Notes: generated from the sequence alone by a model not told the origin. A stretch of 64,000 nt of DNA from Candidatus Parcubacteria bacterium (GCA_002869165.1 PKTK01000001.1:446005-510004), one strand, 5' to 3'. Positions 2,856-46,161 are shown, counted from the first letter of the stretch. Numbers and translations: made by a program.

Positions 2856-3758
2856 ATGAAAAACATAAAACAAATATTAAAAGAACATAATAAAATAATA
2901 GCAAAAAATCTTTTAAATAATCAAGACCTTGAACTCTTACTGTCTCATGCCATAAAAAAAGACAAGATTTTTTTATTTACCTATCCTGAGACCAAGCTTA
3001 ACATTCTAGAATATATTAAATTTAAGTATTACATAAAAAAACGCCTAGCTGGCTTTTCAGTTGCCACAATTACAGGCAAAAAAAGCTTCTATGGTATAGA
3101 ATTCTTAGTAAACAAACATGTACTTGTTCCTCGTCCAGAAACTGAAATGATGGTTGATGAAGTACGTACATATGTACGTACATATAAACCTACAAATATT
3201 ACCATGATAGACATTGGCACCGGCACAGCATGTATTCCTATTAGTATTTTAAAAAATATTGATGTAGAAAATACTAATTTTTATGCTATAGATATTTCAA
3301 AAAAAGCATTAAAGATTGCTAAGCAAAACATTAAAATACATGGATTAAATAATAAAATTGAACTGAAAAAAAGTGACCTTTTAAAAGAAATTGTAAGCCC
3401 GCCTGAATCGGAACGGGCAAGTTGGAAATTGAAAATTGAAAATTCTGACATTATAATAACTGCTAATCTTCCCTATCTTACCAAAGAACAAATCCAAGGC
3501 TCGCCTAGTATTCACAAAGAGCCTAAACTTGCCTTGGACGGTGGGAAAAACGGTATGGATCTTTATATAAAACTTTTTACACAAATAAAACATGTCACAC
3601 AGGAATACCAGCCAAGTTCCCTATTCCTTTTATGTGAAATAGGCGCCTTGCAATCAAAAATATTCAAAAAAAGCTTACTTCACATATTACCAAATGCTAA
3701 AATAAATATAAAAAAAGACCTAGCTGGTCTTGATAGAATTGTGACAATCAATTGTTAA
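2856..3758 (+). CDS. prmC: release factor glutamine N5-methyltransferase (HemK/PrmC)
   Basis: SAM-binding DIGTGTACI and catalytic ITANLPYL (NPPY-type motif, here NLPY); sits directly after prfA. Confidence 0.85.
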   Translation: MKNIKQILKEHNKIIAKNLLNNQDLELLLSHAIKKDKIFLFTYPETKLNILEYIKFKYYIKKRLAGFSVATITGKKSFYGIEFLVNKHVLVPRPETEMMVDEVRTYVRTYKPTNITMIDIGTGTACIPISILKNIDVENTNFYAIDISKKALKIAKQNIKIHGLNNKIELKKSDLLKEIVSPPESERASWKLKIENSDIIITANLPYLTKEQIQGSPSIHKEPKLALDGGKNGMDLYIKLFTQIKHVTQEYQPSSLFLLCEIGALQSKIFKKSLLHILPNAKINIKKDLAGLDRIVTINC

Positions 3759-3775
3759 TTTAAAAGGAGGGGATC

Positions 3776-3940
3776 GTGAAATACGAAGAAATAATTGATC
3801 TTATTCTTTCAGAAAGAAACAAAATAGATGAAACAGTTAACGATATCCTAAAACAAAACAGTAGCCTCTCTATGAGACCAGACACTCCTCCCGTTGATTT
3901 AAAATATCTTGAAAAGAATAAATCTATTTTCATCCGCTAA
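3776..3940 (+). CDS. small hypothetical protein (54 aa, GTG start)
   Basis: Strong SD aaaaggagggg 5 nt upstream of GTG 3776; VKYEEIIDLILSERNKIDETV...; followed by terminator; below ORF-track size cutoff. Confidence 0.35.
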   Translation: MKYEEIIDLILSERNKIDETVNDILKQNSSLSMRPDTPPVDLKYLEKNKSIFIR

Positions 3941-4066: not shown

Positions 4067-4462
4067 CTATTCTCTTACAATCGGTTTAACATCTTGAATA
4101 AAATACGTAGTTGAACCAAGCCATGGCCTTAATAATAAATTTTGATGGTACGATAGTTTAACCATTTCTTGTTTTTCTAACGCATCCTGGATATATCCAA
4201 TTAAAACTTCGTTATTCTTATCAACACTAAAATCCCATGTGTTGGTAGTTACTGTTCCCTGTCCTCCTAAAATTAATTGTCCCTCCCAAGTTTTCCAACG
4301 AATACCTTTGTGTGAAAACTTAGTTACGATCCCTACGCGATCACCATCCCCAATACAAAAACCACCACTACCAGCTACTACAGCAAACAAAATGCCAACA
4401 ATAGAAAGGGCAATCATTAATTCAATCAAAGTAAAACCTTTAGCGTTAAATAAATGTTTCAT
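4067..4462 (-). CDS. type IV pilin-like protein (prepilin N-terminal cleavage/methylation domain)
   Basis: N-terminus MKHLFNAKGFTLIELMIALSIVGILFAVV is the class III signal (G/FTLIELMI) with hydrophobic helix. Confidence 0.8.
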   Translation of the reverse strand: MKHLFNAKGFTLIELMIALSIVGILFAVVAGSGGFCIGDGDRVGIVTKFSHKGIRWKTWEGQLILGGQGTVTTNTWDFSVDKNNEVLIGYIQDALEKQEMVKLSYHQNLLLRPWLGSTTYFIQDVKPIVRE

Positions 4463-11008: not shown

Positions 11009-12406
11009 ATGAGTAATATGTCTAACCAAATATTAGAAAAATTACCACCCCAGAACCTAGAAGCTGAACAGCATTTTCTAGGCTCTATTTTGCTTGACAA
11101 GGATGCTATCATCAAAGTCGGTGACATGATCAGACCTGATGATTTTTATGACTCAAAACACAGGTTGCTTTATGAAATAATGATTGAATTATATTCAAAA
11201 CATGAACCAATTGATGTTGTTAGTATTAGTAATCTCTTAAAAGAAAAAAACAAGCTTGAACAAGTCGGTGGTAGAACTTATCTTGCCAAACTATCAAATG
11301 TTGCTATTACTCCTACTAGCATAGTTAACTATGCTCATATTATCCAAAAAAAGGCTACTCTGAGACGTCTACTAAAAGCTGCTTCAGAAATAACAGAACT
11401 AGGGCAAAAAGAAGATGAGGAAGTTGATGCACTACTAGACAACGCTTAAAGAAAACTTTTTTCCGTTTCTCATAATTACTTAAAAGAATCCTTTACCCCA
11501 GTTGACACACTTCTAAATGATGCCTTTGAAAGAATTGATGAATTACATAAAATGAGCGGAAAACTCAGGGGTATCCCAACTGGATTCGGTGATTTGGACA
11601 ATCTTCTAACAGGATTACAGAAATCTGACTTGATCATCCTGGCTGCTAGACCATCTGTAGGTAAAACATCGTTTGCCCTAGATATAGCCAGACAAGCAGC
11701 CGTAACACACAAAGCAGCTGTAGGAATATTTTCACTTGAAATGAGTAAGGAACAGCTAGTTGATCGTATGCTTTGCGCTCAATCAAATGTTAGTCTATGG
11801 AAAATGAGATCTGGTAAGCTATCTGACTCTGACGCCAATAATGACTTTGCCAAAATTGCTGAAGGTATGGGACATCTTTCTGAGGCACCTATATACATCG
11901 ACGACTCCCCTAACTGCTCAGTAATGGAGATTCGAACTAAAGCTAGGAGATTAAAGGCTGAAAAAAATCTTGATTTGCTAATAATTGACTACCTCCAACT
12001 CATGGAAGGTCGTGGTAAACATTCTGACAATCGTGTTCAAGAAGTAGCTGAAATTTCTAGTGGTCTCAAGGGTATTGCTCGTGAATTAAATATCCCAGTT
12101 ATTGCCCTCTCACAGCTTTCTCGTGCAGTTGAACAAACCAAACCAGCTATCCCAAAGCTTGCTCATCTTAGAGACTCTGGTTCTATTGAACAAGATGCTG
12201 ATGTAGTTATGTTTATTTATAGAAAATCCGCTGACAGGAACTACAACAAAGAAGAATTATCAGCCGAAGAAAAGAACGCTGGTGAAATCCATGTTGCCAA
12301 ACACAGAAATGGTCCAACCGGAAAAGTAAATCTATTCTTTGATGAAGTAACCGTTAGTTATAAAAACATGGCTAGAGTTGATTACCAAGAGCCACCTCAA
12401 CAATAA
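11009..12406 (+). CDS. dnaB: replicative DNA helicase DnaB, single in-frame TAA at 11447-11449
   Basis: ORFs 11009..11449 and 11552..12406 are in one frame; N-terminal domain (PPQNLEAEQHFLGSILLD), linker, Walker A ARPSVGKTSF, IDYLQLM, SQLSR; total 465 codons, as expected for DnaB. Confidence 0.9.
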
Positions 12407-31722: not shown

Positions 31723-32523
31723 TTAAAGTGAGAATCTTACAAACTTTTCAATTTTAGCATCTCCGAGAACATCTTCAATTTTTTTCTTATCATCTTTGAT
31801 AAATTCTTGCTTTAGAAGACATACTTCAGAATAATATTTTTCAATTTTTCCTTTCAAAATATTTTCAATAATATTTTCTGGCTTACCTTCTTTTAGAAGT
31901 TGCTCTTTATATATTTCTTTTTCCTTGTCTGTTTCATCAGCTGGAACTTCACTAGGATCAATATATTTAGGACTTGAGGCAGCAATATGCATGGCAATGT
32001 CTTTAGCTAGTTCATTATCGATCTTTTTGTCAAATGATACTAAAACACCAATTTTACCACCCATATGAGAATAAGCAGCTACTGAACCATTTTCTGATTT
32101 TAGCATTTCTATCCCTTTAACGCCCATTTTTTCGCCAATTGTTCCACTTAGATTATCTAGGGTTTCTTGAGCTGTTCCTTCTGACATGGGTTCTGCCATT
32201 AACTCTTCAAGTGAAGCTGGTTTTTTACTTTTTAGAATTTAAAATAACTCTTTGGCATAAGCTTGAAATTTATCGTTTTTTACAACAAAATCAGTTTCAG
32301 CGTTTATTTCAAAAGCATAACCTTCGGTATTATCTTCATTTGTTTCAACTAACACAATACCTTCATTGGTTTCTCTTTCACCTCTTTTAGCTGCTTTTGC
32401 AATTCCTTTTTTACGTAGGATCTCTACTGCCTTTTCAATATCTCCGCCAGTCTCATCAAGAGCTTTTTTACATTCAACCATGCCTGCTCCTGTTTTTTCA
32501 CGAAGTAATTTAATTTTTTCCAT
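31723..32523 (-). CDS. tsf: elongation factor Ts, single in-frame TAA at 32239-32241
   Basis: ORFs 32239..32523 and 31723..32199 are in one frame; UBA-like N-terminus [24 protein letters not shown], then ...KPASLEEL...IGEK... and C-terminal module; downstream of rpsB. Confidence 0.9.
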
Positions 32524-33358: not shown

Positions 33359-33440
33359 ATTTTTTCCTTTGTTCTTCTATCTAGATTCACGCTAATTTTT
33401 AATTCTCTTATTTTAAGATTTAACATTTTTCTTAAAAATT

Positions 33441-33530
33441 TGTCATTTCGACCGAAGGGAGAAATCTATAATATTTAAATAGTAACACGTATTATAGATC
33501 TCTCCTCCATCCTGTCGTCGAGATGACAAG
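33441..33530. repeat. GTCAT-hairpin element in the rpsB upstream region
   Basis: tgtcATTTCgaccgaagggaGAAATc ... agatctctcctccatcctgtcgtcgagatgacaag. Confidence 0.75.
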
Positions 33531-33660
33531 AAGAAGAGATATAAATAAACTAATATTAGCGAAGGAATTGTTTTTCTAGATATGAAAGATTTTAATAAAT
33601 AAATTATATAAAAAGCCAGAGGCTTTTTGTATAGTTAAGGACAAAATACGTCCAATAACT

Positions 33661-33690
33661 AAAACATGACCCAAAAATGAGTCATGTTTT
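33661..33690 (-). terminator. hairpin after the paralog operon
   Basis: aaaacatgac-ccaaaaatga-gtcatgtttt, 10-bp stem with T-run on the minus strand; a TTGACA/TATAAT-like pair (33720-33692) overlaps just upstream. Confidence 0.5.
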
Positions 33691-33721
33691 AATATTATAT
33701 AATTTGAGTATTTTTGTCAAG

Positions 33722-34147
33722 TTATATTTCACAACAAATAAGTCTTGCTTGAATTCCACAATCAGTATCATTTATTGTATATAGCACGGTTCTTTCATCC
33801 TGCATATAGTCACCAACATAATCCTTATCCACCGTACAACCATGATATTCATACCCCTGTCTTCTTTTCATTGAATGACTTACTATAATCTCGTCTGCGT
33901 CACAGCTTAATGTCAAGTTTTTGTCAAATGTTAAGCCTTCAACTACACGACACTTGTTTGATATTCCTCCAAAATCATCATCTAGATTATTCCACATCGT
34001 CTGGGTAACAGTATCTCCAGCTGACATATTATAACTATTTAAATAAGCTAATACATATGCTCCAAAAGGAGAAAGAACAGCGGCCGAGATAATTAAAACA
34101 AACATAATAACAAATATGGCCGTCAATTTTATTTTAATATTTTTCAT
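33722..34147 (-). CDS. Cys-rich small membrane-anchored/secreted protein, paralog 3
   Basis: Shares AYLNSY...MWNNLDDDFGGIS..C..V.G....L.LSCDADE..V.HSM.R...C......DERTV......DCGIQA.L.CC with 34247..34663 and 34676..35089; likelier start MKNIKIK (34147). Confidence 0.7.
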   Translation of the reverse strand: MKNIKIKLTAIFVIMFVLIISAAVLSPFGAYVLAYLNSYNMSAGDTVTQTMWNNLDDDFGGISNKCRVVEGLTFDKNLTLSCDADEIIVSHSMKRRQGYEYHGCTVDKDYVGDYMQDERTVLYTINDTDCGIQARLICCEI

Positions 34148-34246
34148 ATTTTTTATTATTATAAAATTAAATAAACTTATAGGGTTCAAAACATTTTATC
34201 CCTAGTTTAAAGCTAAAATAAAACCTAGTTTCCAGCTGAAATTATT

Positions 34247-34663
34247 TCAGTCCAATTTACAACAAAGCAATGTTGCCTGAATGCCACAATCAGCATCATC
34301 CAGTCTAAAAAAAACAGTTCTTTCGTCTTGTATCTCATCACCAAAATAATGTTTCATTTCACAATTAGCACTCTCAGGAACCCTTCTCATAGAATGACTA
34401 ACAACAACTTCATCAGCAGCACAAGAAAGAGTCAAAGTTTCTGCATATTCTAAGCCTTCAACAATATGACAATCACTAGAGATTCCTCCAAAATCATCAT
34501 CTAGATTATTCCACATTTCTTCTGTCAATAAGTCCCCCTCTGCTTTTTCGTAACTATTTAGATATGCCAAAACATAAGACCCAAAAGGCAAAAGAACGGC
34601 AACGGAAACAATCAAAACAAATATGATTACAAATGATGTAGTTAGAAATTTTAAATTTTTCAT
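34247..34663 (-). CDS. Cys-rich small membrane-anchored/secreted protein, paralog 2
   Basis: Same architecture: N-terminal hydrophobic helix, six conserved Cys, C-terminal CGIQATLLCC. Confidence 0.7.
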   Translation of the reverse strand: MKNLKFLTTSFVIIFVLIVSVAVLLPFGSYVLAYLNSYEKAEGDLLTEEMWNNLDDDFGGISSDCHIVEGLEYAETLTLSCAADEVVVSHSMRRVPESANCEMKHYFGDEIQDERTVFFRLDDADCGIQATLLCCKLD

Positions 34664-34675
34664 ATTTTTTATATT

Positions 34676-35089
34676 TTAAATATCACAACAAATTAACTTT
34701 GCACGAATTCCACAATTTACATCCTCTATGCTAAACCAAACTGTTCTTTCATCTCGTACACTATCTCCAACATATGCTCTTATATCACAGCCAGAATCAT
34801 TTCTCCTTATCATTGAGTGGTTAATAACCGTCTCATCTGCATCACAAGAAAGAGTCATTTCTTGCGCATATGTTTCACCTGAAACCACACGACAATCGCC
34901 ACTAATTTTACCAAAGTCATCATCAAGGTTATTCCACATCTCTACAGATAATAAATCTCCAGACGACTTTTCGTAGCTATTTAAATAAGCCATAACATAA
35001 GATCCAAAAGGCGACAAAACAGCAACGGAAACGACAAAAACAAACACAGTAACAAACGAAATAGCTAATGTTGATTTATAGTTTTTCAT
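34676..35089 (-). CDS. Cys-rich small membrane-anchored/secreted protein, paralog 1
   Basis: Same architecture; C-terminal CGIRAKLICCDI. Confidence 0.7.
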   Translation of the reverse strand: MKNYKSTLAISFVTVFVFVVSVAVLSPFGSYVMAYLNSYEKSSGDLLSVEMWNNLDDDFGKISGDCRVVSGETYAQEMTLSCDADETVINHSMIRRNDSGCDIRAYVGDSVRDERTVWFSIEDVNCGIRAKLICCDI

Positions 35090-35116
35090 AAATTTTATTA
35101 TTTAATATAATATATT

Positions 35117-36808
35117 TTAATTACAAATATATTCGATAATAGCTTGACCATCTGCTCCATTACCTCCTACGGATTGACCTGGTCCAACAGCTCCACCAGC
35201 TCCAACTACTAAGGTGTAAGTGTTTCCTGCTGCTACAGTTGAAGTGTAATTAACATAGGCTCCGCCTCCGCCTCCGCCAGTAGCACAACTAAAAGAACTA
35301 TATACGGATCCGCCTCCGCCTCCGCCTGGAATAGCACCATCTCCTCCAGAACTTGGTCCAGTAATATCAGTATCTCCAGCTCCTCCTGTCCCTGGTGCAT
35401 TCCCGCCATCACCACCATCACCAGCAGTAGCACAATCAACTCTACCCAAACCTGCACCGCCATCAATATTTATATCACCACCTATAGCAACACCGCCTAC
35501 TGCATCTACTATATCTCCGCCATAGTGCCCACCTCCTGCGAATAAGCCTGCTAGCGTAGTGTCTCCACCTGATTGACCAACATCTGCTGAAAAACCATCA
35601 CCTTTTCCACCTCCACCGCCACCCCAAAGGGAAATCTCAACAGAATCAACATCATCTGGAACAGTAAAAGTATAGGAACCTGGGGTATATGTTGTCACAG
35701 AAGAACAAGTAGAAGGAGGTTCAGGAGATGAAGCTGAACAAAGAGTACAAGGAAATACTGAGGCATCCAAAGTACAGCAAGGAGATGAAACATTAGGTTC
35801 AACTAAAATTCTTGGACTACCCTCAGAATATATACGAGCATTTGTTGCCCATGGATGTGAAGCGTCATTAACCAAACCTACACTATAAGCTTTTCCGTCT
35901 TTGTAAACCTTTAGTGGTGAATAGCTTGTCTTTTCTTCTACGTAAGGAATGATTAAATTATCATCTTCTGCATCATCATAAATACGTAAACCAATATCAA
36001 TATATGAATTCTGAGCTGTACAATAATCGCCTGTTAAATCATACGATGTTACTTGAGGATTTAGATAAGGATTGGAGCTATAGCCACATGTCCAATTCCA
36101 TTCTGTTCCATATTCGGGAAATGATAAGCTCTGAGGATCACCAAATTCACAAAGATCAGTAGATGGAGCTGAATTAATCTCACTCACTTCTGCATATACA
36201 TCATCAGAACTGTCGCTGTTACACTTACCACAGAGTCTTGCTTCATCTGCCTGATTTGAACAACTAGTACCACCTGTAGAACTCCAATTAATAGTTCCAG
36301 CTAGTTGTACTCCAGTACTACAATCTGTTGAAAAATTACTTACTGAAGATACATAGTGGCATGTCTTGGTAATATTGCTTTCTGTGTAGGTATTACTGTG
36401 TGGGAGAGGTGCATTATCACACCACACACCAGACTCATAGTTTGATTTCCAAGGACATATGTCTCTATAATAATTTCCATAAAATGACTTACTACTACAA
36501 CCTATTGAACTACATGTAGGATCCTTGACATACGTATTACCATCACCATCTGTAAAATATAACCAACCTGTATATCCATTATCTGAACAATCTTCTTTGG
36601 GGCTTGAACATTTATACGAAGTATCAATCTTATCCCAACAACTCTCTGTCCAAGAAGTTACTGATTCTGTCCAACAAGCAGGATCCCAATTGGAAGGAGA
36701 AGCTGTATTTACATTACTAGGACATTTATCAGCTGCATTTACTATTGAAGGCAAGGTAAGAAAACCTAAAGCAAAAACTAAGATGGTTAAAAATATTTTT
36801 TTATGCAT
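35117..36808 (-). CDS. secreted Cys/Trp-rich protein with C-terminal glycine-rich domain
   Basis: Signal peptide ...PSIVNA/AD; ~30 Cys; C-terminus TYTPGSYTFTVPDDVDSVEISLWGGGGGGKG...GGGGGAYVNYT...TYTLVVGAGG resembles glycine-rich domains of phage fibre-like proteins. Confidence 0.7.
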   Translation of the reverse strand: MHKKIFLTILVFALGFLTLPSIVNAADKCPSNVNTASPSNWDPACWTESVTSWTESCWDKIDTSYKCSSPKEDCSDNGYTGWLYFTDGDGNTYVKDPTCSSIGCSSKSFYGNYYRDICPWKSNYESGVWCDNAPLPHSNTYTESNITKTCHYVSSVSNFSTDCSTGVQLAGTINWSSTGGTSCSNQADEARLCGKCNSDSSDDVYAEVSEINSAPSTDLCEFGDPQSLSFPEYGTEWNWTCGYSSNPYLNPQVTSYDLTGDYCTAQNSYIDIGLRIYDDAEDDNLIIPYVEEKTSYSPLKVYKDGKAYSVGLVNDASHPWATNARIYSEGSPRILVEPNVSSPCCTLDASVFPCTLCSASSPEPPSTCSSVTTYTPGSYTFTVPDDVDSVEISLWGGGGGGKGDGFSADVGQSGGDTTLAGLFAGGGHYGGDIVDAVGGVAIGGDINIDGGAGLGRVDCATAGDGGDGGNAPGTGGAGDTDITGPSSGGDGAIPGGGGGGSVYSSFSCATGGGGGGAYVNYTSTVAAGNTYTLVVGAGGAVGPGQSVGGNGADGQAIIEYICN

Positions 36809-36819
36809 ATTATTAAATT

Positions 36820-38193
36820 TTAATTTAGTAATTCTTTAGCCTTCTCCTCATACTCAGCTTGTTTTGAACTATCTCCCATTTCCCTATAATCAAAAGAAAT
36901 CTGATAATAAGAACTTATCAAGAGACTTTCCTTTTCTGGAAGTAATATTGAAACATCACTAGAAACTAATTCTATCGCCCTTTCAGCTTCCCCAATCGAC
37001 TCTTCATATTTTTCCTGCATATACAATGCCTGAGCTAAAGTTAAATGATTTCCAGCTTGATTTGTGTTTATATCAACTGCTTTTCTAGCGTAATCTACTG
37101 ATGAATCATAATCTTTTTCATATATGCTAAGCTTTGAAAAAGCAACGTATAAACTTGCTTCCATTGGCGCCATAAGCAAGGCCTCTTCAAGATTCTCCCT
37201 AGCACCAATCAAATTCATATTTCTTAAATCAATAGATGATAAAACCCTATAAGCATTCATCTTTTCACCTGAATCTGAACTTTCGTTACTTATTACTTTT
37301 TGACAGTTTAATTTTGCTTTTTCAAACTCCCCTTTTGAAACATACAAATTGCACAGGTTAGAATAAATAAAAGAATGTTTGTCTGTGTCATCTAACTCAC
37401 TGGCTGTTTCAAGATCTTCTACTGCATTATCTAATAATCCTAACATTCTATTGCTATGCCCTCTACCTGCGTAAGCTTTAAAATTTTCTGAGTCTAACTC
37501 TATTGCCTTGGTATAATTGTCTTTTGCATTTTCGTAGTGTGGCTCTATTTCATAAATATAAGCTTTTACTCTAAATACTTCAGAATTTTCTGGATCGAGT
37601 TGCTCTGCTGATGCGACTGCTTCAAAGGCTTTCTCTACATACTCATCCTGACTACCACCCATTGCCTGATCGTTAAGGGCTTTTTCAGCATAAGCTAAAG
37701 CCAACGATAGAAATGAATCTATATCACTAGCATCTGCTTCTGTTTTTTCTGTGAGAAGTTCAATTCTGTTAAGATTTTTATTTCTTATGTATATTGCCTC
37801 AAGTTCGTCTGGATAATTCTCTCTCAAATAAGCTTCTTTTGACCTAAGGGCTAACAAGCACGCAGAAATTTGATCAGCTACTGATATAGCTTCACAAAAA
37901 GATTCATCCAAAGTTGCTAGAGCCTGATTGTAATAATGAATATCTGTTATGGCTTGCTTACAGTTTTCTTTCATTTTCTCACTTTTTATCTTGTCACAAT
38001 CATCGATATTCTTGGAGTAAACAGCGGAAGCAAAATTATCAGAATCACTAGGAATTTTCTTTTGAATCTGGGAAATTGATTGATTTGCATTTTGGTCTGA
38101 GTTGTCATTCTTGAAGACAAAAAAAGCAAGCACTCCTAGGGCGATTACAGCAAATAATACAAATACAATCCAAATTATTTTATCTTTATTCAT
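36820..38193 (-). CDS. membrane-anchored TPR repeat protein
   Basis: N-terminal TM helix; multiple 34-aa TPR-like units (AxxxYxxAIELD...). Confidence 0.7.
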   Translation of the reverse strand: MNKDKIIWIVFVLFAVIALGVLAFFVFKNDNSDQNANQSISQIQKKIPSDSDNFASAVYSKNIDDCDKIKSEKMKENCKQAITDIHYYNQALATLDESFCEAISVADQISACLLALRSKEAYLRENYPDELEAIYIRNKNLNRIELLTEKTEADASDIDSFLSLALAYAEKALNDQAMGGSQDEYVEKAFEAVASAEQLDPENSEVFRVKAYIYEIEPHYENAKDNYTKAIELDSENFKAYAGRGHSNRMLGLLDNAVEDLETASELDDTDKHSFIYSNLCNLYVSKGEFEKAKLNCQKVISNESSDSGEKMNAYRVLSSIDLRNMNLIGARENLEEALLMAPMEASLYVAFSKLSIYEKDYDSSVDYARKAVDINTNQAGNHLTLAQALYMQEKYEESIGEAERAIELVSSDVSILLPEKESLLISSYYQISFDYREMGDSSKQAEYEEKAKELLN

Positions 38194-38258
38194 ATTTCAA
38201 ATTTATAGTTAATTATTTTATTATCTGACATTCTCATTAAAACAGCCAGAAAAATAAT

Positions 38259-38534
38259 TTACTGAACTAACCACATGCTACCATTTTCAACCTCTGCTGG
38301 TAGATCACTTCCTGTCATTTTTTGAATAACTAAACCACCTTCAGCCTGAAATTTACCTGATTTAGCCTGAGTGTCATCACCGGTATTTATTGGAGCTGGT
38401 ACATTACCTTCAACTGGAGCATCAGTTGGAGAGGTCCAGGCGGCCAAAAGACCCTGAAAAGAAAGTGAAAGTCCTAGAGTGATTGCAACTGCAAAAAAAA
38501 CAATTGTAAAAATTTTAAAATTTTCCTTTTTCAT
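38259..38534 (-). CDS. small secreted/anchored protein with AWTSPTxAP...N.PAPINTG...Q.KSG motif
   Basis: N-terminal TM/signal; motif block recalled from N-termini of fibre-like proteins in small-genome bacteria (recollection, not searched). Confidence 0.5.
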   Translation of the reverse strand: MKKENFKIFTIVFFAVAITLGLSLSFQGLLAAWTSPTDAPVEGNVPAPINTGDDTQAKSGKFQAEGGLVIQKMTGSDLPAEVENGSMWLVQ

Positions 38535-39874: not shown

Positions 39875-41392
39875 TTACAATAAATAAATCACATCAAACC
39901 CACTTTCCAAATAATGAAAATTTACAAATAACAAACCGGCTATCAAGATGATCACTGTCAGAGTTTGGACTATGACTGGTTTGTGTTGGACTTCATACCT
40001 AACAATTATTTTGATAGTCAAAGATGCTATCAAAATACAAAGGATAATTGCTAATATGATTTGGGATAAATGTACGGCTTCTGATGAGAATATAAAATTA
40101 CTTTTATCGCTGTATTCAGTGGCAATGCTAGCAATTGGTAGACTCTTTTCATCTGCTTCAACATTCACAGCTTTTTCTCTGGGGTCACTTAACAGAGCTA
40201 TGTCATTACTATGTCTGAATACTTTTATTAATTCAACTGGAATTTCTTCAGAGTTATCCATTGTAGCGGAGACATCTTGATCTTTGTTTATGTTAAGAGG
40301 GGTGGAATCTTCCTTGCTTGACTGGACAATCGGTTCACTAGACGCTTTTACTTCTTCTTCTGGCTCTTGAGTAGCTATATCTGATTCTATTCCTAGTACC
40401 TCACTCTCTTCATCTTGTTTACTCTCAAGAAAAGCGCCTTTGGGAAGTTCTAATGCCTGAATATTATAATCGTCTTCTTGAATAGTCTCTGGCTCTTTAG
40501 TATCAGCCTCAACTTTAGCTATTTCAATTTTTTCACCAATTGGATGTTTGATCTCTTCGACTTTTTCAACTATTTCCTCCTCTACCTGGGTGGCTTCAAC
40601 CAAGTTCTGGCTCTCGTGACCCAAGTCTCGTTCGGAAAATAACTCAACCAACACATTCGTTTCCTTGCCATCAATCTCTCCACGAATTAATGCTAATCCG
40701 ATTTCATTGTATTGTTTATTCAAAATATTCTTTCTGTGACTCACTGAATTCATTAGCGCTGAATGAACTGCTTCGGCGGTATTAAAACTCATGGCCAGGT
40801 TCTCTCCTACAATCTTGTAAGCATACTGGCTTCTATCTATAAAATCCCAAGGTTTTAAACCTTCGGGGGTGGTGTGAGAAAAATAATTTTTCAAAACCAT
40901 ATCATTGGCCTTGTTCAAAGCATAGCCACTGAGAAGAGCATTCTTCTCTAGTGGAGGAACTGAATTTTCAATTCTTGATTGATTGGTAAGCTCCAGGATC
41001 CTGGCTATAAGTAGATCATCCGCTTTACTTTTACTAGGAAAAATAAAATACAAATATGACACAACTGATATTTTTACCAATATAGAAAGCAAAACAAATA
41101 TTGCCAATGATTTGGTTTTTAAAATACGTGGCAAATGATTATTACAATCACAAGGAACAAAATATTCTTTCAAAATAGAACAAGAATGATTACAAAAATC
41201 ATAAAAGCCTTCTCTATCTTTTTCATATTTTTTTATTTCCTTTTCTTCTTTGCCTAAAAATTCTTTGAAATTCTTTTCAATATGTCCTAATCGTTTATTA
41301 AAAAACCCCAATTTCTTCAAAAACAAAAAAGAACTGATGCCAAAAAACACCCAGAACTTTATTCCATGTTTTTTATTCTTTTTATCTTTCAT
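39875..41392 (-). CDS. membrane protein with extracellular CAP/SCP (YkwD-like) domain
   Basis: SCP block NYFSHTTPEG...ENLAMSF...AVHSALMNSVSHRKNIL...YNEIGLAL; acidic linker; C-terminal TM helices; likelier start MKDKKNKK (41392). Confidence 0.7.
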   Translation of the reverse strand: MKDKKNKKHGIKFWVFFGISSFLFLKKLGFFNKRLGHIEKNFKEFLGKEEKEIKKYEKDREGFYDFCNHSCSILKEYFVPCDCNNHLPRILKTKSLAIFVLLSILVKISVVSYLYFIFPSKSKADDLLIARILELTNQSRIENSVPPLEKNALLSGYALNKANDMVLKNYFSHTTPEGLKPWDFIDRSQYAYKIVGENLAMSFNTAEAVHSALMNSVSHRKNILNKQYNEIGLALIRGEIDGKETNVLVELFSERDLGHESQNLVEATQVEEEIVEKVEEIKHPIGEKIEIAKVEADTKEPETIQEDDYNIQALELPKGAFLESKQDEESEVLGIESDIATQEPEEEVKASSEPIVQSSKEDSTPLNINKDQDVSATMDNSEEIPVELIKVFRHSNDIALLSDPREKAVNVEADEKSLPIASIATEYSDKSNFIFSSEAVHLSQIILAIILCILIASLTIKIIVRYEVQHKPVIVQTLTVIILIAGLLFVNFHYLESGFDVIYLL

Positions 41393-41454
41393 ATTTATAT
41401 TATAACACAAAAATCAAATATCATGAAGCACGTATCACATAACACAAAACAAAA

Positions 41455-41588: not shown

Positions 41589-42260
41589 TTAATTCTCGAT
41601 TGGTTCTGCTATAACAACCAAACGATTTTCAGTTGAATAAATTGGAGTACAGGTAAACATGGTTAATCTAGGCTCGACAGTCTGGTCCATGATGCTTATT
41701 TCTGTTTCAGGAACCACCTTGGTTTCGATTATATGGTAATTTATCTCTTCTTTATTCCATAAAACAGTAACTAAGTCCCCTTTCTCTAGTTTATCAAAAG
41801 AATAAAAAGTCACATTATGGGGCGGTAGATATTTAAACCTGTGGCCTGTAATAACAGTATTTCCTCCTTGATCAGGCGTAGAAGAATCTGGCACTCGCCA
41901 AGCACCCATGGAAAGTCCTTGTTGTTCATTATCAGACTCCACAATTGGGGCATTTACGCCTATTTTAGGGATTATAAGCCTATTTGGGGATACATCGTAG
42001 TCAATACTAGGCAAAACGCTATTTATGACCCTTTTGTGCGCTTCTAGGCTAGTGGTGGCATTCGAACTCTCATATGGCACAAATTCTACTTTATCCTCAT
42101 ATTTAAACTTATAAACCAACCAGGGATAAAAAGGAAATAAAAGCAAATAAAGCAAGATTAAAACTGCTAAAATCTCTAATCCATAAATAAAATATTTTAA
42201 TATTTTTTGCTTGTTAATATTCATAATTTTATTATAACACAAATAAATAACAGAAAACAT
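41589..42260 (-). CDS. sortase family transpeptidase
   Basis: N-terminal TM, catalytic His (VITGHR), Cys motif LTMFTCTP (TLxTC), Arg (NRLVVIAE); likelier start MNINKQK (42224). Confidence 0.85.
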   Translation of the reverse strand: MFSVIYLCYNKIMNINKQKILKYFIYGLEILAVLILLYLLLFPFYPWLVYKFKYEDKVEFVPYESSNATTSLEAHKRVINSVLPSIDYDVSPNRLIIPKIGVNAPIVESDNEQQGLSMGAWRVPDSSTPDQGGNTVITGHRFKYLPPHNVTFYSFDKLEKGDLVTVLWNKEEINYHIIETKVVPETEISIMDQTVEPRLTMFTCTPIYSTENRLVVIAEPIEN

Positions 42261-42654: not shown

Positions 42655-45600
42655 CTAGGCTAATAATTTTTCTCTTCCAACTCTAGCGCCAACCAAAGAA
42701 GTTAAGGCAAACATCATTAGTGCCATGAGTTCATTTACTGAAAAACCAGTCTCAGCAAGAACCATTACTTCTTCCACGCTGACATCAGCTGATGAGCTTA
42801 CTTCAGAATAGTTATCAGCTATTGCTGTAGCTGTATTTGTAATAACACCAGCGGCTTGATCTGCATCGATCATAGCTTTGAAGGTCACTTCCCTGCTTTC
42901 ATTGGCTGGGATATCTCCCAAGTTCCATGACTTGCTAGTAGTATCATCATCATATGTCAATCCTGCAGGCAAAACATCATTTACCACTACATTGAAAGCA
43001 TCTAGACTTCCAGTGTTGCTTACCACCACAGTATAATTTAATTCGTCTCCTGGGTTAGCATTGTTTATATCAACAGATTTAACGATATTCAATACTGGAG
43101 CACCTTCTTCACCTAAAACAACTGGAGTTTCTTCAGTAGGTTCGGATGTGCTTATTTCTGTAGTGGTTATTCTCCAGCCAGTTCCACCGCCTCCGCCAGT
43201 ACTTCCACCGCCACCAGAGGTAGTTACGGTGCTACAGTCAGAGCTACAATAACCTTCTTGACCATTGTTTGCTCCACTATCACAAGCTTCATCGCCTTCT
43301 ATTATGCCGTCTCCACAAACTGGTTCGTCACCTCCACCACCTTCAGTGGTACAATCAGATGAACAACCGTCACCATCTGTTTGATTTCCATCATCACATT
43401 GTTCCCAGCTTTGATTTACATAGCCGTCGCCACAATATTCATCAGAACCTCCGCCAATGGTTTCACAGTCAGAAGTACAATAATCAGAACCATTTGGTCC
43501 GTCATCACATTCTTCCCAATCTTGATTCACTTCTCCGTCTCCACAAATTGGATCATTATCTTCTGGAGGTATATTATAGAAATTTACAAACCATGGATCA
43601 ATGCCATCAAAACTTCCATCCATGTATTTGTATTCATAAAAATTCCAATCTCCATAGTCCCAATCACCACCGATCTTTTCCTCTACTCTATAGTCGCCAG
43701 CTTCTGGGAAGAAACAATAGTAACCATTCTCATCTGTTACTGTTTCGTCAACAATCTCTTCAAAACCACAATGTAGGGCTTTTACTGCATCTACATCATA
43801 ACCATCACCACCATCAAAATCTTCAGGATTTGAAGCATCAACTAGCTTAATTCTATAAGTATAGTCAAGATCTCCAAGATCAAATGTGCTATCGCCTTCT
43901 TGGCAATCAGGTTCTCCTAGACTTACCCAATCACTTGCGTCTTCATCCCAGGCAAAAGCTTCAATGTATTCTGGATATGCATCACAACTGGCATCTCCAT
44001 TAGTTGTTTCATAGACCATGACATCATCGCCATCACCATTTATTACTCTATTTTCAAAATTCAAAATAATTTCACCACCAAATCCTAATGAAACAAAAAC
44101 ATCATCATTTTCACCAAGTGCTTGACTAGTGTCTTTTCTGTCATCAGCAATCTCGCCTACTAAATTGTAGCCATAAACCTCATCTGCCCATTCATCACCT
44201 TCTTCACAAGTCTCAATCTGTTTAAGGTAAATAGGCCAACCCTCTACGGTTGCATCAGTATTATAATTATATTTATAACCACAGATTCCTGGTTCATTAT
44301 AAAAATCTAATCCTGATTCGAAACTAGGTGGTAATCCAATAAATGCATCACCAGGAATTATAGTTGCAGAATCAGAAAGTGAACTTATCTTTACTGCTTC
44401 CACTTCTCCCAAGGTAACATCATAATAATACTGCTTAGTTTCTTCATAAGGATAAACTTGTCTCCAACCGTCTTGCATCACCTCATGTACTTCAAAGTCA
44501 CCTGCGCACAATCCTTCAAAAAAGTAATAACCTTCTTCGTCAGTAGTTGTAGCAAATACTAATTCATTATCTTGCCAAAGTTGAATATCCCAACCTGACA
44601 AATACTGCCTATCATTAGCGTGCATCTTGTATCCTTCAATTGAGTAGTCACAGACTTCATCATACGTACAGCTCTTATCATCAACAGTTGCACTTGGGTC
44701 ATAGTTGTTAGCTTCTGGGTCAGTACAACCATAAACTGGATAAACACATGAATCATCATCAATAGTTGCTGTTTCATCATAGTTTGTTGCTTCAGGATCT
44801 GTACAACCTGAGTATACACAACTTTGATCATCTTCTGTTGCACTCTCATCATAATTATCAGCGTCTGGGTCAGTACAACCCAAATAATAACAAGAACCAT
44901 CTTCTACATCAGCTGATTCATCGTAGTTGTCAGCTAATGGATCAGTACAACCATAATATTCGCATGTTCCATCATCGTCTGTTGCACCTTGATTGTAATT
45001 AGCAGCAGTCTCATCAGTACAGCCATAAACTGGGTAAGTACATGAACCGTCATCAAAATTAGCTTCTGGATCATAGTTATCTGCTTCTTCGTCTGTGCAA
45101 CCTTCAATTTTAGCTATACAAGAACCGTCGTCTTCGGTTGCTTCTGTGTTATAATTAATCGCACTTTGATCAGTGCAGCCAGTTATTGGATAAATACAAG
45201 AACCGTCGTCTTCAGTTGCTGAAGAATTGTAATTAGAAGCCTCTTCATCGGTACAACCAAGAATAGGATAAGTACATGAACCATTATCAAAGTTAGCTCC
45301 TGGGTCATAGTTATCTGCAGAGTCGTCTGTACAACCATAATACAAACATGAACCATCATCTATATTAGCGCCTGAATCATAATTGTCAGCAGTATCATCA
45401 GTACAACCAAGATATTCACATGAACCATCGTCTATATTAGCGCCTGAATCATAATTGTCAGCAGTATCATCAGTACAACCAAGATATTCACATGAACCAT
45501 CGTCTTCAGTGGCTGATTCACTGTAATTATTTGCTTCTGGGTCAGTGCAACCAGAGATCTCTAGTTTATTAACTTGTATAGGCACGTCTTTATTTCCTAC

Positions 45601-46161
45601 ACTTTCATTATTAACACCGTCTATTAATCTTGAATGAAGCTGTGCTCCGCTCCAATTACTTGCATTGTCGGCCAACAAACCATAATATTGCAATTCAACT
45701 TCACTTGAATCAGCGGTAAAAAACAATGTATAGGTAACAGTATTCGGCAGGCTTGCACTAACAGTCCCCGCTGATAAAGAAATACCACTAGCACTACCAT
45801 CCCATGTACCAGGAGTATTAAAATTTTCATAACCCACCAATCCTGTACTGTCTTGATAGTCATGCTGAATATCTAGCTCATAGCTCATACCTGAAGTTAA
45901 ACCCCCAATAGTTAATTTAAAAGGTACGTTATCTCCTTCAGAATAACAAGAACCAGCTTGACAAATATTGCCAGTAGTAAATGTTCCTGCCTTTGTTTGA
46001 CCTTCTAACTTATACTGAATAGTTGAAGATACAGCACTAGCATCTTCAATATTAAAAAACACGCCTAAAAATGACATGTTGAAGATGAGCACTAACATTG
46101 TGAAAATGTTTAAACATTTGTAAAAATTAAACCCTCCTATGTGTTTTTTACTTTTACTCAT
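42655..46161 (-). CDS. 1168-aa sortase-anchored surface protein (LAETG sorting signal)
   Basis: Signal/TM; 12 repeats GCTDxxAxNYxxxAxxDDGSCxY; three CGDGxxxxxxExCDxG Cys-rich repeats; DUF11-like domain (NYTVVVSNTGSLDAFNVVVNDVLPAGLTY); C-terminal LAETG + hydrophobic helix + RVGREK. Confidence 0.85.
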   Translation of the reverse strand: MSKSKKHIGGFNFYKCLNIFTMLVLIFNMSFLGVFFNIEDASAVSSTIQYKLEGQTKAGTFTTGNICQAGSCYSEGDNVPFKLTIGGLTSGMSYELDIQHDYQDSTGLVGYENFNTPGTWDGSASGISLSAGTVSASLPNTVTYTLFFTADSSEVELQYYGLLADNASNWSGAQLHSRLIDGVNNESVGNKDVPIQVNKLEISGCTDPEANNYSESATEDDGSCEYLGCTDDTADNYDSGANIDDGSCEYLGCTDDTADNYDSGANIDDGSCLYYGCTDDSADNYDPGANFDNGSCTYPILGCTDEEASNYNSSATEDDGSCIYPITGCTDQSAINYNTEATEDDGSCIAKIEGCTDEEADNYDPEANFDDGSCTYPVYGCTDETAANYNQGATDDDGTCEYYGCTDPLADNYDESADVEDGSCYYLGCTDPDADNYDESATEDDQSCVYSGCTDPEATNYDETATIDDDSCVYPVYGCTDPEANNYDPSATVDDKSCTYDEVCDYSIEGYKMHANDRQYLSGWDIQLWQDNELVFATTTDEEGYYFFEGLCAGDFEVHEVMQDGWRQVYPYEETKQYYYDVTLGEVEAVKISSLSDSATIIPGDAFIGLPPSFESGLDFYNEPGICGYKYNYNTDATVEGWPIYLKQIETCEEGDEWADEVYGYNLVGEIADDRKDTSQALGENDDVFVSLGFGGEIILNFENRVINGDGDDVMVYETTNGDASCDAYPEYIEAFAWDEDASDWVSLGEPDCQEGDSTFDLGDLDYTYRIKLVDASNPEDFDGGDGYDVDAVKALHCGFEEIVDETVTDENGYYCFFPEAGDYRVEEKIGGDWDYGDWNFYEYKYMDGSFDGIDPWFVNFYNIPPEDNDPICGDGEVNQDWEECDDGPNGSDYCTSDCETIGGGSDEYCGDGYVNQSWEQCDDGNQTDGDGCSSDCTTEGGGGDEPVCGDGIIEGDEACDSGANNGQEGYCSSDCSTVTTSGGGGSTGGGGGTGWRITTTEISTSEPTEETPVVLGEEGAPVLNIVKSVDINNANPGDELNYTVVVSNTGSLDAFNVVVNDVLPAGLTYDDDTTSKSWNLGDIPANESREVTFKAMIDADQAAGVITNTATAIADNYSEVSSSADVSVEEVMVLAETGFSVNELMALMMFALTSLVGARVGREKLLA
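44670..45560. repeat. coding tandem repeats (12 x ~24-26 codons, GCTD...DDGSC units)
   Basis: Periodicity is visible in both DNA and protein; includes a perfect 2 x 72-bp duplication at 45361-45504. Confidence 0.85.

Follow-up and report, generated by a model that had tools for sequence, protein, structure and literature searches.

Results

A six-gene operon for exported proteins

In a 64,000-nt stretch of an ultrasmall Candidatus Parcubacteria genome (GCA_002869165.1 PKTK01000001.1:446005-510004; GC content ∼33%), referred to as the window in its whole length, we analysed six minus-strand genes that run from position 38534 to 33722 and end in three tandem genes for small cysteine-rich proteins. 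The group is bounded by mnmA (39752-38592) and rpsB (33358-32669), and the operon proteins (NCBI locus tags C0583_02380-02390) are annotated as 'hypothetical'. The products comprise a 91-aa protein (family F1), a tetratricopeptide repeat (TPR) protein, a 563-aa mosaic protein (family F2) and the three paralogs (family F3) (Table 1).

The open reading frames (ORFs), described in an initial annotation of the sequence as co-directional and tightly spaced, are indeed separated by gaps of only 65, 11, 27, 12 and 99 nt. Because of these short gaps, a terminator-like hairpin after the last paralog and a small hairpin 3′ of mnmA, the six genes make up one transcription unit. The terminator-like hairpin lies 36 nt past the stop codon of paralog C and closes the operon; at 33610-33628 there is another hairpin, which is weaker. 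All six products have a basic start followed by an 18-19-residue hydrophobic stretch, i.e. a signal or an anchor. An Rfam scan of window positions 31-40 kb gave no match, no tandem DNA repeats were found, and a PADLOC scan returned generic TPR matches only.

Table 1. Position of the operon's genes, protein modules and terminator-like hairpin in the window.
Feature	Position	Strand	Basis
F1, 91 aa	38259..38534	-	ORF and hydrophobic segment
Membrane-anchored TPR protein, 457 aa	36820..38193	-	ORF and Pfam TPR
F2, 563-aa secreted mosaic protein	35117..36808	-	ORF, Pfam, alignment of relatives
F2 'IDIGLR' module, residues ∼268-357	35738..36007	-	Invariant alignment columns
F2 glycine-rich C-terminal domain, residues 376-563	35120..35683	-	Pfam PF21722
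F3 paralog A (P0003), 137 aa, head end LICCDI	34676..35089	-	
F3 paralog B (P0001), 138 aa, head end LLCCKLD	34247..34663	-	
F3 paralog C (P0002), 141 aa, head end LICCEI	33722..34147	-	
Intrinsic-terminator-like hairpin, CATGACTCA-TTTTT-GGGTCATG then TTTT	33665..33686	-	RNA fold -19.4 kcal/mol

Three diverged paralogs under purifying selection

The three tandem paralogs, whose lengths of 137-141 aa and six invariant cysteines had been recognized initially, are 58-63% identical, and their database E-values of ∼1e-75 are far past chance. For paralog C the real start is the ATG at 34147 (MKNIKIKL) and not the TTG at 34189, from which the mechanically called ORF would measure 155 aa. Each paralog is built from a signal or anchor, an AYLNSY…GDxLxxxMWNNLDDDFG module and a six-cysteine head. 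The conserved blocks noted in the initial annotation are present, except that one copy has LSCAADE in place of LSCDADE and another has NCGIRAKLICC as its C-terminal block. The same annotation had placed a hypervariable region between Cys3 and Cys4; this segment instead holds a conserved Y(V/F)GD..(Q/R)DERTV block, and the paralogs are rich in indels only in the loop around Cys3 that joins HSM.R to Y.GD. Anchored and secreted forms are inseparable for both F1 and the paralogs because of plausible AxA sites (LLA↓AW and VLA↓YLNSY respectively); for the paralogs, anchoring and cleavage appear equally plausible.

Sequence searches of Pfam, NCBIfam, PHROG, PADLOC and the PDB returned no significant match to the paralogs, in line with the earlier failure to recognize a characterized family. 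When the paralog profile was run against 5.8 billion protein clusters, seven clusters were recovered, namely the three paralogs themselves and P0004-P0007.

Diversification by a diversity-generating retroelement (DGR), which the initial annotation had kept in view, is not supported by the sequence of the window. When the paralog region was compared by blastn with the window as a whole, only the three paralogs came up, at 67-70% DNA identity, with no template repeat, and no YxDD reverse-transcriptase (RT) motif occurs in any frame of the 64 kb. Pairwise dN/dS along the paralogs is 0.16-0.30 at dS 1.0-1.7, a weak test since dS is near saturation, and gives no sign of positive selection on the heads; short sub-segments alone come near a ratio of 1, with some 11 synonymous sites behind the estimate. 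The three genes arose by old duplications and are kept under purifying selection; they are not a target of hypermutation.

Several known identities were considered for the operon's products and rejected. A class II bacteriocin with a double-glycine leader does not fit, GG being found in two of the three copies and neither the operon nor its flanks having an ABC/C39 gene. For a sortase-anchored surface protein or Gram-positive pilin, the LPXTG/LAXTG motif and tail are found in none of the six proteins. A VirB2/TrbC-like pilin of a type IV secretion system (T4SS) was dismissed in view of a single hydrophobic segment and no match to TrbC (PF04956) or T4SS_pilin (PF18895) at E≤1. Membership of the window paralogs among phage tail fibres or receptor-binding proteins was likewise discarded; only distant F3 relatives match tail-fibre PHROGs, at about 1e-6.

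A constant N-terminal module joined to exchangeable heads

An exhaustive HMMER profile search of 1.84 billion representatives produced 93 matches at E≤0.001, and in most of these the best stretch lay inside profile positions 2-64, that is, in the N-terminal module. This module consists of a hydrophobic segment followed by 'A(L/Y)(T/L)(G/N)(N/S)Y.K..GD.LT…WNNLDDDF' (in short GDxLTxxxWNNLDDDF). At least three recurrent types of C-terminal head follow it: ∼220-aa proteins end in W.W.I.WCxxGN and have two cysteines; ∼290-aa proteins end in (K/R)C(A/S)xCC(N/K), with 10 cysteines; and short six-cysteine heads, to which the window paralogs belong, end in (L/I)(Y/I)CC(K/E)(L/I). F3 proteins reach 1393 aa, with GN(V/I)GIGT repeats. 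Past DDDF, most of the longer members carry a phage-tail-fibre-like motif, 'KSGDTMTGxL…(N/D)(L/I)..P….DA.NK.YVD', which matches PHROG tail-fibre families at 7e-7 to 2e-5 (P0014 7e-7, P0017 2e-6). In the window paralogs this segment is skipped and the module is joined straight to the head, and by their sequence they are the shortest, minimal members of a wider uncharacterized family F3.

The head can also occur in repeated form. In P0054, a 743-aa Cys-rich metagenome protein found by the exhaustive search (E 2e-5), it is present as three tandem repeats, which shows that it is an autonomous domain. Two of these repeats keep only the C1, C2 and CC cysteines, and the protein has a poly-Gly/Ser/Asp linker. 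Tandem F3 genes with different heads are found elsewhere as well, at locus L015 (at least three) and at L010. Directly after F3, five loci encode a ∼185-205-aa N-terminally anchored protein without a Pfam family (L005 10480-11097; L006 1273-1827; L008 8542-9117; L016 871-1425; L021 8896-9465); the window operon does not contain this conserved partner.

Conserved gene order in relatives

The arrangement of the operon recurs in relatives, so the synteny on which the initial annotation had staked its reading is indeed shared. L001, covered by three overlapping Logan contigs, has the order F1-…-F2-F3: F1 is accompanied by a 135-aa protein homologous to the N-domain of the TPR protein, by a 416-aa protein, by an F2 of 513 aa and by one F3 protein (P0004, 50% identical). 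L004 has the order TPR-F2-F3, with an F2 of 577 aa, at the same rpsB-tsf-PSP1-…-GAPDH chromosomal site as the window. Its F3 protein (P0006) has kept the N-terminal module and carries an unrelated, Cys-poor head. Right after P0006, at 3413-3847, lies a decayed Cys-rich F3 copy with a homopolymer frameshift, two Tyr→stop changes and a 1-nt insertion. Taken together, P0006 and the decayed copy look like a head replacement caught midway. As judged from L004 and from the family at large, the diversity of F3 arises through replacement of the head at the DDDF(G) junction.

At L005, F1 is followed by a 1835-aa secreted protein, F3 (P0007), a 205-aa anchored protein and a VirD4-like ATPase. The 1835-aa protein was considered as the F2 counterpart and rejected, as it has no homology to the 563-aa protein.

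Type IV pilus genes next to F3

We determined the association of F3 with pili by a motif scan of all retrieved loci, combined with their gene tables. Of the about 11 independent loci whose flanks were usable, seven have type IV pilin or pilus genes together with F3. Specifically, the gene orders are pilB-RR-pilC-pilin-pilin-F3-191 aa (L008), pilin-F3-184 aa-…-pilD-…-three minor pilins (L006), pilMNO-like-pilB-RR-pilC-F3-F3 (L010), pilT-pilC-two pilins-…-F3 (L007), pilin…F3…pilD (L017/18), pilin…F3-189 aa (L021) and four pilin-like genes-F3-signal peptidase I (L022/23). At L013, PilN/PilO genes lie ∼7 kb from F3. F1 and F2 form a conserved gene pair of their own (window, L001, L019 and L020), and the L019 pair is situated directly upstream of pilB-pilC-three pilins.

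In the window itself, an orphan prepilin gene is found at 4067-4462 on the minus strand (KGFTLIELMIAL; Pfam N_methyl 1.6e-8), with no pilus machinery nearby; the genome therefore encodes type IV pilins.

The accompanying proteins F1, F2 and the TPR protein

The 563-aa protein F2 had been introduced as a secreted protein with about 30 cysteines, many tryptophans and a glycine-rich C-terminus. It does have a textbook signal peptide (…VNA↓AD) and such a C-terminus; the cysteine count is 25, not ∼30, with 22 of these within residues 1-375, and there are 12 tryptophans. Residues 376-563 are 32% Gly and match Pfam Gly_rich_2 (PF21722; E 2.9e-8, 34.4 bits against a cut-off of 24.3), over a best stretch that spans only model positions 3-40 of 226; the precomputed PF21722 match for P0008 agrees. 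This tail is present in the window F2 only and is missing from the L001 and L004 orthologues. Weak PHROG tail-protein matches (1.5e-4 to 1e-2) cover residues 344-416, and a PDB sequence search with the 563-aa protein returned nothing meaningful. The T-even adhesin gp38 has a polyglycine-II sandwich as its binding domain (PMC12032242). F2 resembles it in a Gly-rich domain whose G-runs are split by variable segments, yet its sequence does not match gp38, and Pfam Gly_rich_2 is matched instead.

The part that F2 has in common with the 513-aa L001 and 577-aa L004 proteins is a 'CGxC…SS..VY…W.W.C' unit followed by the IDIGLR module, with the consensus IDIGLRIxDD…SPLK(V/I)YKDG…GLV…ARI…CC..FPCxLC (alignments A3, A4). 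Homologues were found with a core-module alignment as query; the full-length query recovered F2 itself only, low-complexity words crowding the candidates. The core profile search brought up 22 further secreted metagenome proteins (P0097-P0118); among those retrieved, the unit 'IDIGLR…SPLRIAKNG..YGIALVD…ASK.RI.TSSGIKALRKF' usually forms the last ∼70 aa of otherwise unrelated proteins, and in P0114 it stands near the N-terminus. The unit also occurs at L019 6001-6840 and L020 6001-6651. No Pfam family covers it in F2 or in the retrieved relatives, and it may be an attachment or oligomerization domain.

For the 91-aa protein F1, the hydrophobic N-terminus and the AWTSPTDAP...PAPINTG...KSG motif reported initially are present; its description as anchored is less secure, given the plausible cleavage site mentioned above. 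Homologues that share both end motifs, AWTxPTxxPxxGNVxAPINxG..QxKxG at the N-terminus and GxMWL at the C-terminus, are encoded at L001, L005, L019 and L020 (alignment A8), and F1 has no match in Pfam, NCBIfam or PHROG. At L015 6872-7273 we observed a 133-aa protein whose mature part opens with 'AW' as in F1 (VQA↓AWDTTYSTGDTLTATGFNDMV…) and continues with an F3-type GDTLTA and a Cys-rich head. This protein hints that the N-terminal parts of F1 and F3 may share ancestry.

The TPR protein was correctly described: a transmembrane (TM) segment at its N-terminus is followed by TPRs matching Pfam TPR_1 (2.9e-13, 49.5 bits; cut-off 27.8) and TPR_2 (2.9e-12, 46.1 bits; cut-off 27). It also bears a Cys-containing helical domain. 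Homologues of its N-domain are the 344-aa protein of L004 (2e-15) and the 135-aa protein of L001 (3e-13). Identity with PilW, PilF, MamA or PrsT was rejected, the NCBIfam scores being far under the cut-offs.

A possible fold of the six-cysteine heads

Sequence and profile searches of Pfam and the PDB with the window heads gave no meaningful match. P0055, another six-cysteine F3 member, passes Pfam PCSK9_C3 (PF18463; 30.8 bits against a cut-off of 26.7), and in the PDB it comes closest to C-terminal modules of PCSK9, at the non-significant E-values of 0.027-0.16 (default 0.001). The window heads resemble the cysteine-rich beta-sandwich modules of resistin and the PCSK9 CHRD in cysteine order (C1…C2…C3…C4…CC-COOH) and in the local motifs C(K/R)V, SC(D/A)ADE(I/V)(I/V) and A.LICC; they differ in C3/C4 spacing. 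Written so as to cover both sides of the comparison, the last two motifs are xSC(D/E)xx(E/W)x(L/I) and A.(L/A)ICC. A global hhalign comparison of the window/P0054 head with P0055 plus PCSK9 M3 aligns them end-to-end with C1, C2 and CC in register, though weakly (pairwise P 0.012-0.05, probability <2%). Owing to this weak alignment and to the low confidence of the structural models described below, a resistin/PCSK9-like fold of the heads is only a lead.

Discussion

Patescibacteria, which account for a large part of bacterial diversity, spend their lives attached to host cells. We know of no molecules identified as picking the host outside a few cultivated Saccharibacteria. On the basis of genomic association and analogy, we tentatively favour, at somewhat short of an even chance, the reading that the operon encodes an extracytoplasmic, pilus-associated, tail-fibre-like host-adhesion module with swappable Cys-rich binding heads, of a sort typical for episymbiotic Patescibacteria. 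The N-terminal module of F3 would dock each F3 protein to a common structure, possibly the pilus or the complex at its tip, possibly a fibre to which F1 and F2 also contribute. Parallels to such docking would be found in phage receptor-binding proteins, whose N-termini are conserved, or in tip adhesins that are not pilins, such as PilY1. The disulfide-stabilized heads would then bind ligands on the host-cell surface, and three diverged tandem heads might broaden or partition the range of targets. With a Cys-rich region and a domain of the polyglycine type, F2 could serve as a second binding or structural component, while the membrane-anchored TPR protein might scaffold or chaperone assembly. 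The fibre-like apparatus with diversified tips envisaged in the initial annotation is compatible with the architecture observed, namely the constant N-terminal module, the swapped heads and the tail-fibre motifs in longer relatives.

A number of observations weigh against this adhesion module. The operon lies away from pilus machinery, none of which is found in the 64 kb, and the sole pilin gene of the window is ∼30 kb off. Among the other F3 loci, L004, L005, L013 and L015 are not directly flanked by a pilin gene, and the pilus association is drawn from about 11 loci and is not a phylum-wide statistic. F1 and F3 are not themselves pilins, because the prepilin G↓F-T-L-x-E signal is missing: N_methyl matched none of the six proteins, a regular-expression search for the class III signal finds it only in the 4067-4462 gene and in the L006-L008 pilins, and the F3 proteins start with MKN(I/L/Y)K…, in which Gly-1 and Glu+5 are both missing. 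The tail-fibre motif is not present in the window paralogs, the paralogs and F1 have no PHROG match at E≤0.1, and tblastn against viral contigs and 50,697 phage genomes gave no match. Structural modelling gives no usable evidence on the fold: AlphaFold2 returned a pLDDT (predicted local distance difference test) score of 55 for paralog C with a 27-sequence family alignment, only the N-terminal helix being confident, and of 37 for the head alone with 11 sequences.

The proposed module has counterparts among known systems. In agreement with our reading, experimental work has shown that type IV pili and minor pilins with accessory domains mediate host binding in cultivated Saccharibacteria (PMC11623550). 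The F3 relatives are like the PilY1/PilC tip adhesins and Saccharibacteria PilX2 in their position at the end of or within pilin arrays, in a non-prepilin (Sec-type or non-canonical) signal and in a variable C-terminal binding domain. However, there is no sequence similarity to these proteins, F3 is far smaller (137-355 aa) and has no beta-propeller, the window operon stands apart from pilins, and the tie of F3 to the pilus is drawn from gene neighbourhood only. With phage tail fibres and receptor-binding proteins, F3 has in common a conserved N-terminal attachment part and swappable C-terminal heads, and the 'SGDTMTGxL…DAxNKxYVD' motif and GN(V/I)GIGT repeats appear in longer F3 and F1 relatives; unlike them, the window proteins are cell-encoded with signal peptides and have no phage context. 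Tandem arrays of VirB2-like pilins have been proposed to adapt a Patescibacteria epibiont to different hosts (PMC12102498), an idea with which our reading also agrees. These, too, are tandem small divergent Sec-exported proteins, whereas F3 combines one hydrophobic segment with a Cys-rich globular head, and only L005 lies near a VirD4-like ATPase.

Could the products simply be general cell-envelope or surface-layer proteins, with redundant paralogs and no link to pili or host recognition? The operon does lie amid housekeeping and envelope genes (for a CAP-domain protein, a sortase with its LAETG substrate, and glycosyltransferases), and the 64 kb without pilus machinery, together with several F3 loci without pilus neighbours, would fit. 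We nevertheless think it unlikely, since exchange of the heads on an unchanging N-terminal module is what marks a binding protein rather than a bulk structural one, the family is very sparse (seven close clusters in 5.8 billion), and seven of about 11 F3 loci as well as the L019 F1-F2 pair are situated within or beside pilus clusters. Decidedly unlikely, in our view, is that the paralogs are secreted Cys-rich effectors or toxins, bacteriocin-like or host-modulating, with the upstream genes serving maturation or export. Against this stand the absence from the operon of a C39-peptidase/ABC exporter and of an immunity-like small TM gene, the lack of any PADLOC or toxin-family match, and the fact that the supposed leader is common to fibre-like proteins of 200-1400 aa. 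The FGG of two copies resembles the end of a double-glycine leader; the GG, however, is unconserved (FGK in paralog A, FAQ in P0004). What remains in favour of an effector is the small size of the products (∼105 aa when mature), their six invariant cysteines, a plausible AxA site and the tandem diverged copies.

DGRs are frequent in Patescibacteria, tail-fibre motifs occur in the F3 relatives, and the Gly-rich domain has weak PHROG tail matches, all of which could point to a prophage tail-fibre or receptor-binding remnant or to a DGR cassette. This origin is nonetheless highly improbable and largely refuted within the window: the flanks are without phage genes, the mnmA-rpsB site is also occupied in L004, and the phage and viral-contig, template-repeat and RT searches were all negative.

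The adhesion module can be taken one step further, to a hitherto undescribed, Patescibacteria-specific host-recognition apparatus in which F1, F2 and F3 together would be a cell-encoded analogue of a phage tail-fibre set, either mounted on type IV pili or working with them, and in which exchangeable resistin/PCSK9-like heads, held in tandem gene arrays, would determine host specificity. This extension is somewhat unlikely; if true, the host range of uncultured episymbionts would be readable from sequence. If only the pilus-tied modular family holds, it would offer concrete candidates for host specificity in Parcubacteria, and if these are ordinary envelope proteins, the value would lie in the annotation of new domains only. 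In any case, F1, F2 and F3 are three unannotated protein families to define and test. A literature search for these families and motifs in Patescibacteria found no description. Modular pili-linked adhesins with swappable heads are a known kind of system; no account of F1-F3, of their joint occurrence or of their architecture exists in the libraries and literature searched.

Other features of the window

The intergenic region upstream of rpsB (33359-33721, 363 nt) contains several hairpins, matches nothing in Rfam at E≤0.1 and may act as the leader of rpsB. On the other side of the operon, 3-8 kb upstream, a sortase gene (41589-42260, minus strand) adjoins a gene for a 1168-aa DUF11/SpaA-like protein (42655-46161, minus strand); a CAP-domain membrane protein is encoded between these two genes and the operon (39875-41410). 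The C-terminus of the 1168-aa protein, …LAETG followed by a hydrophobic stretch and a basic tail, is that of a sortase-anchored surface protein or pilin.

The tsf gene (31723-32523, minus strand) has an in-frame TAA at 32239-32241 (…AKELF, stop, ILKSKKP…); in the L004 orthologue the frame stays open at this point (…ADALLALVEMKEP…). Possible explanations are a mistake in the assembly, a pseudogene or an essential gene that has been split; as the stop is TAA, not UGA, it does not reflect code-25 recoding. Finally, a DnaB_C domain is encoded in a 284-aa ORF (11552-12406, plus strand) that follows a separate 146-aa ORF (11009-11449, plus strand), and DnaB may thus be split or interrupted.

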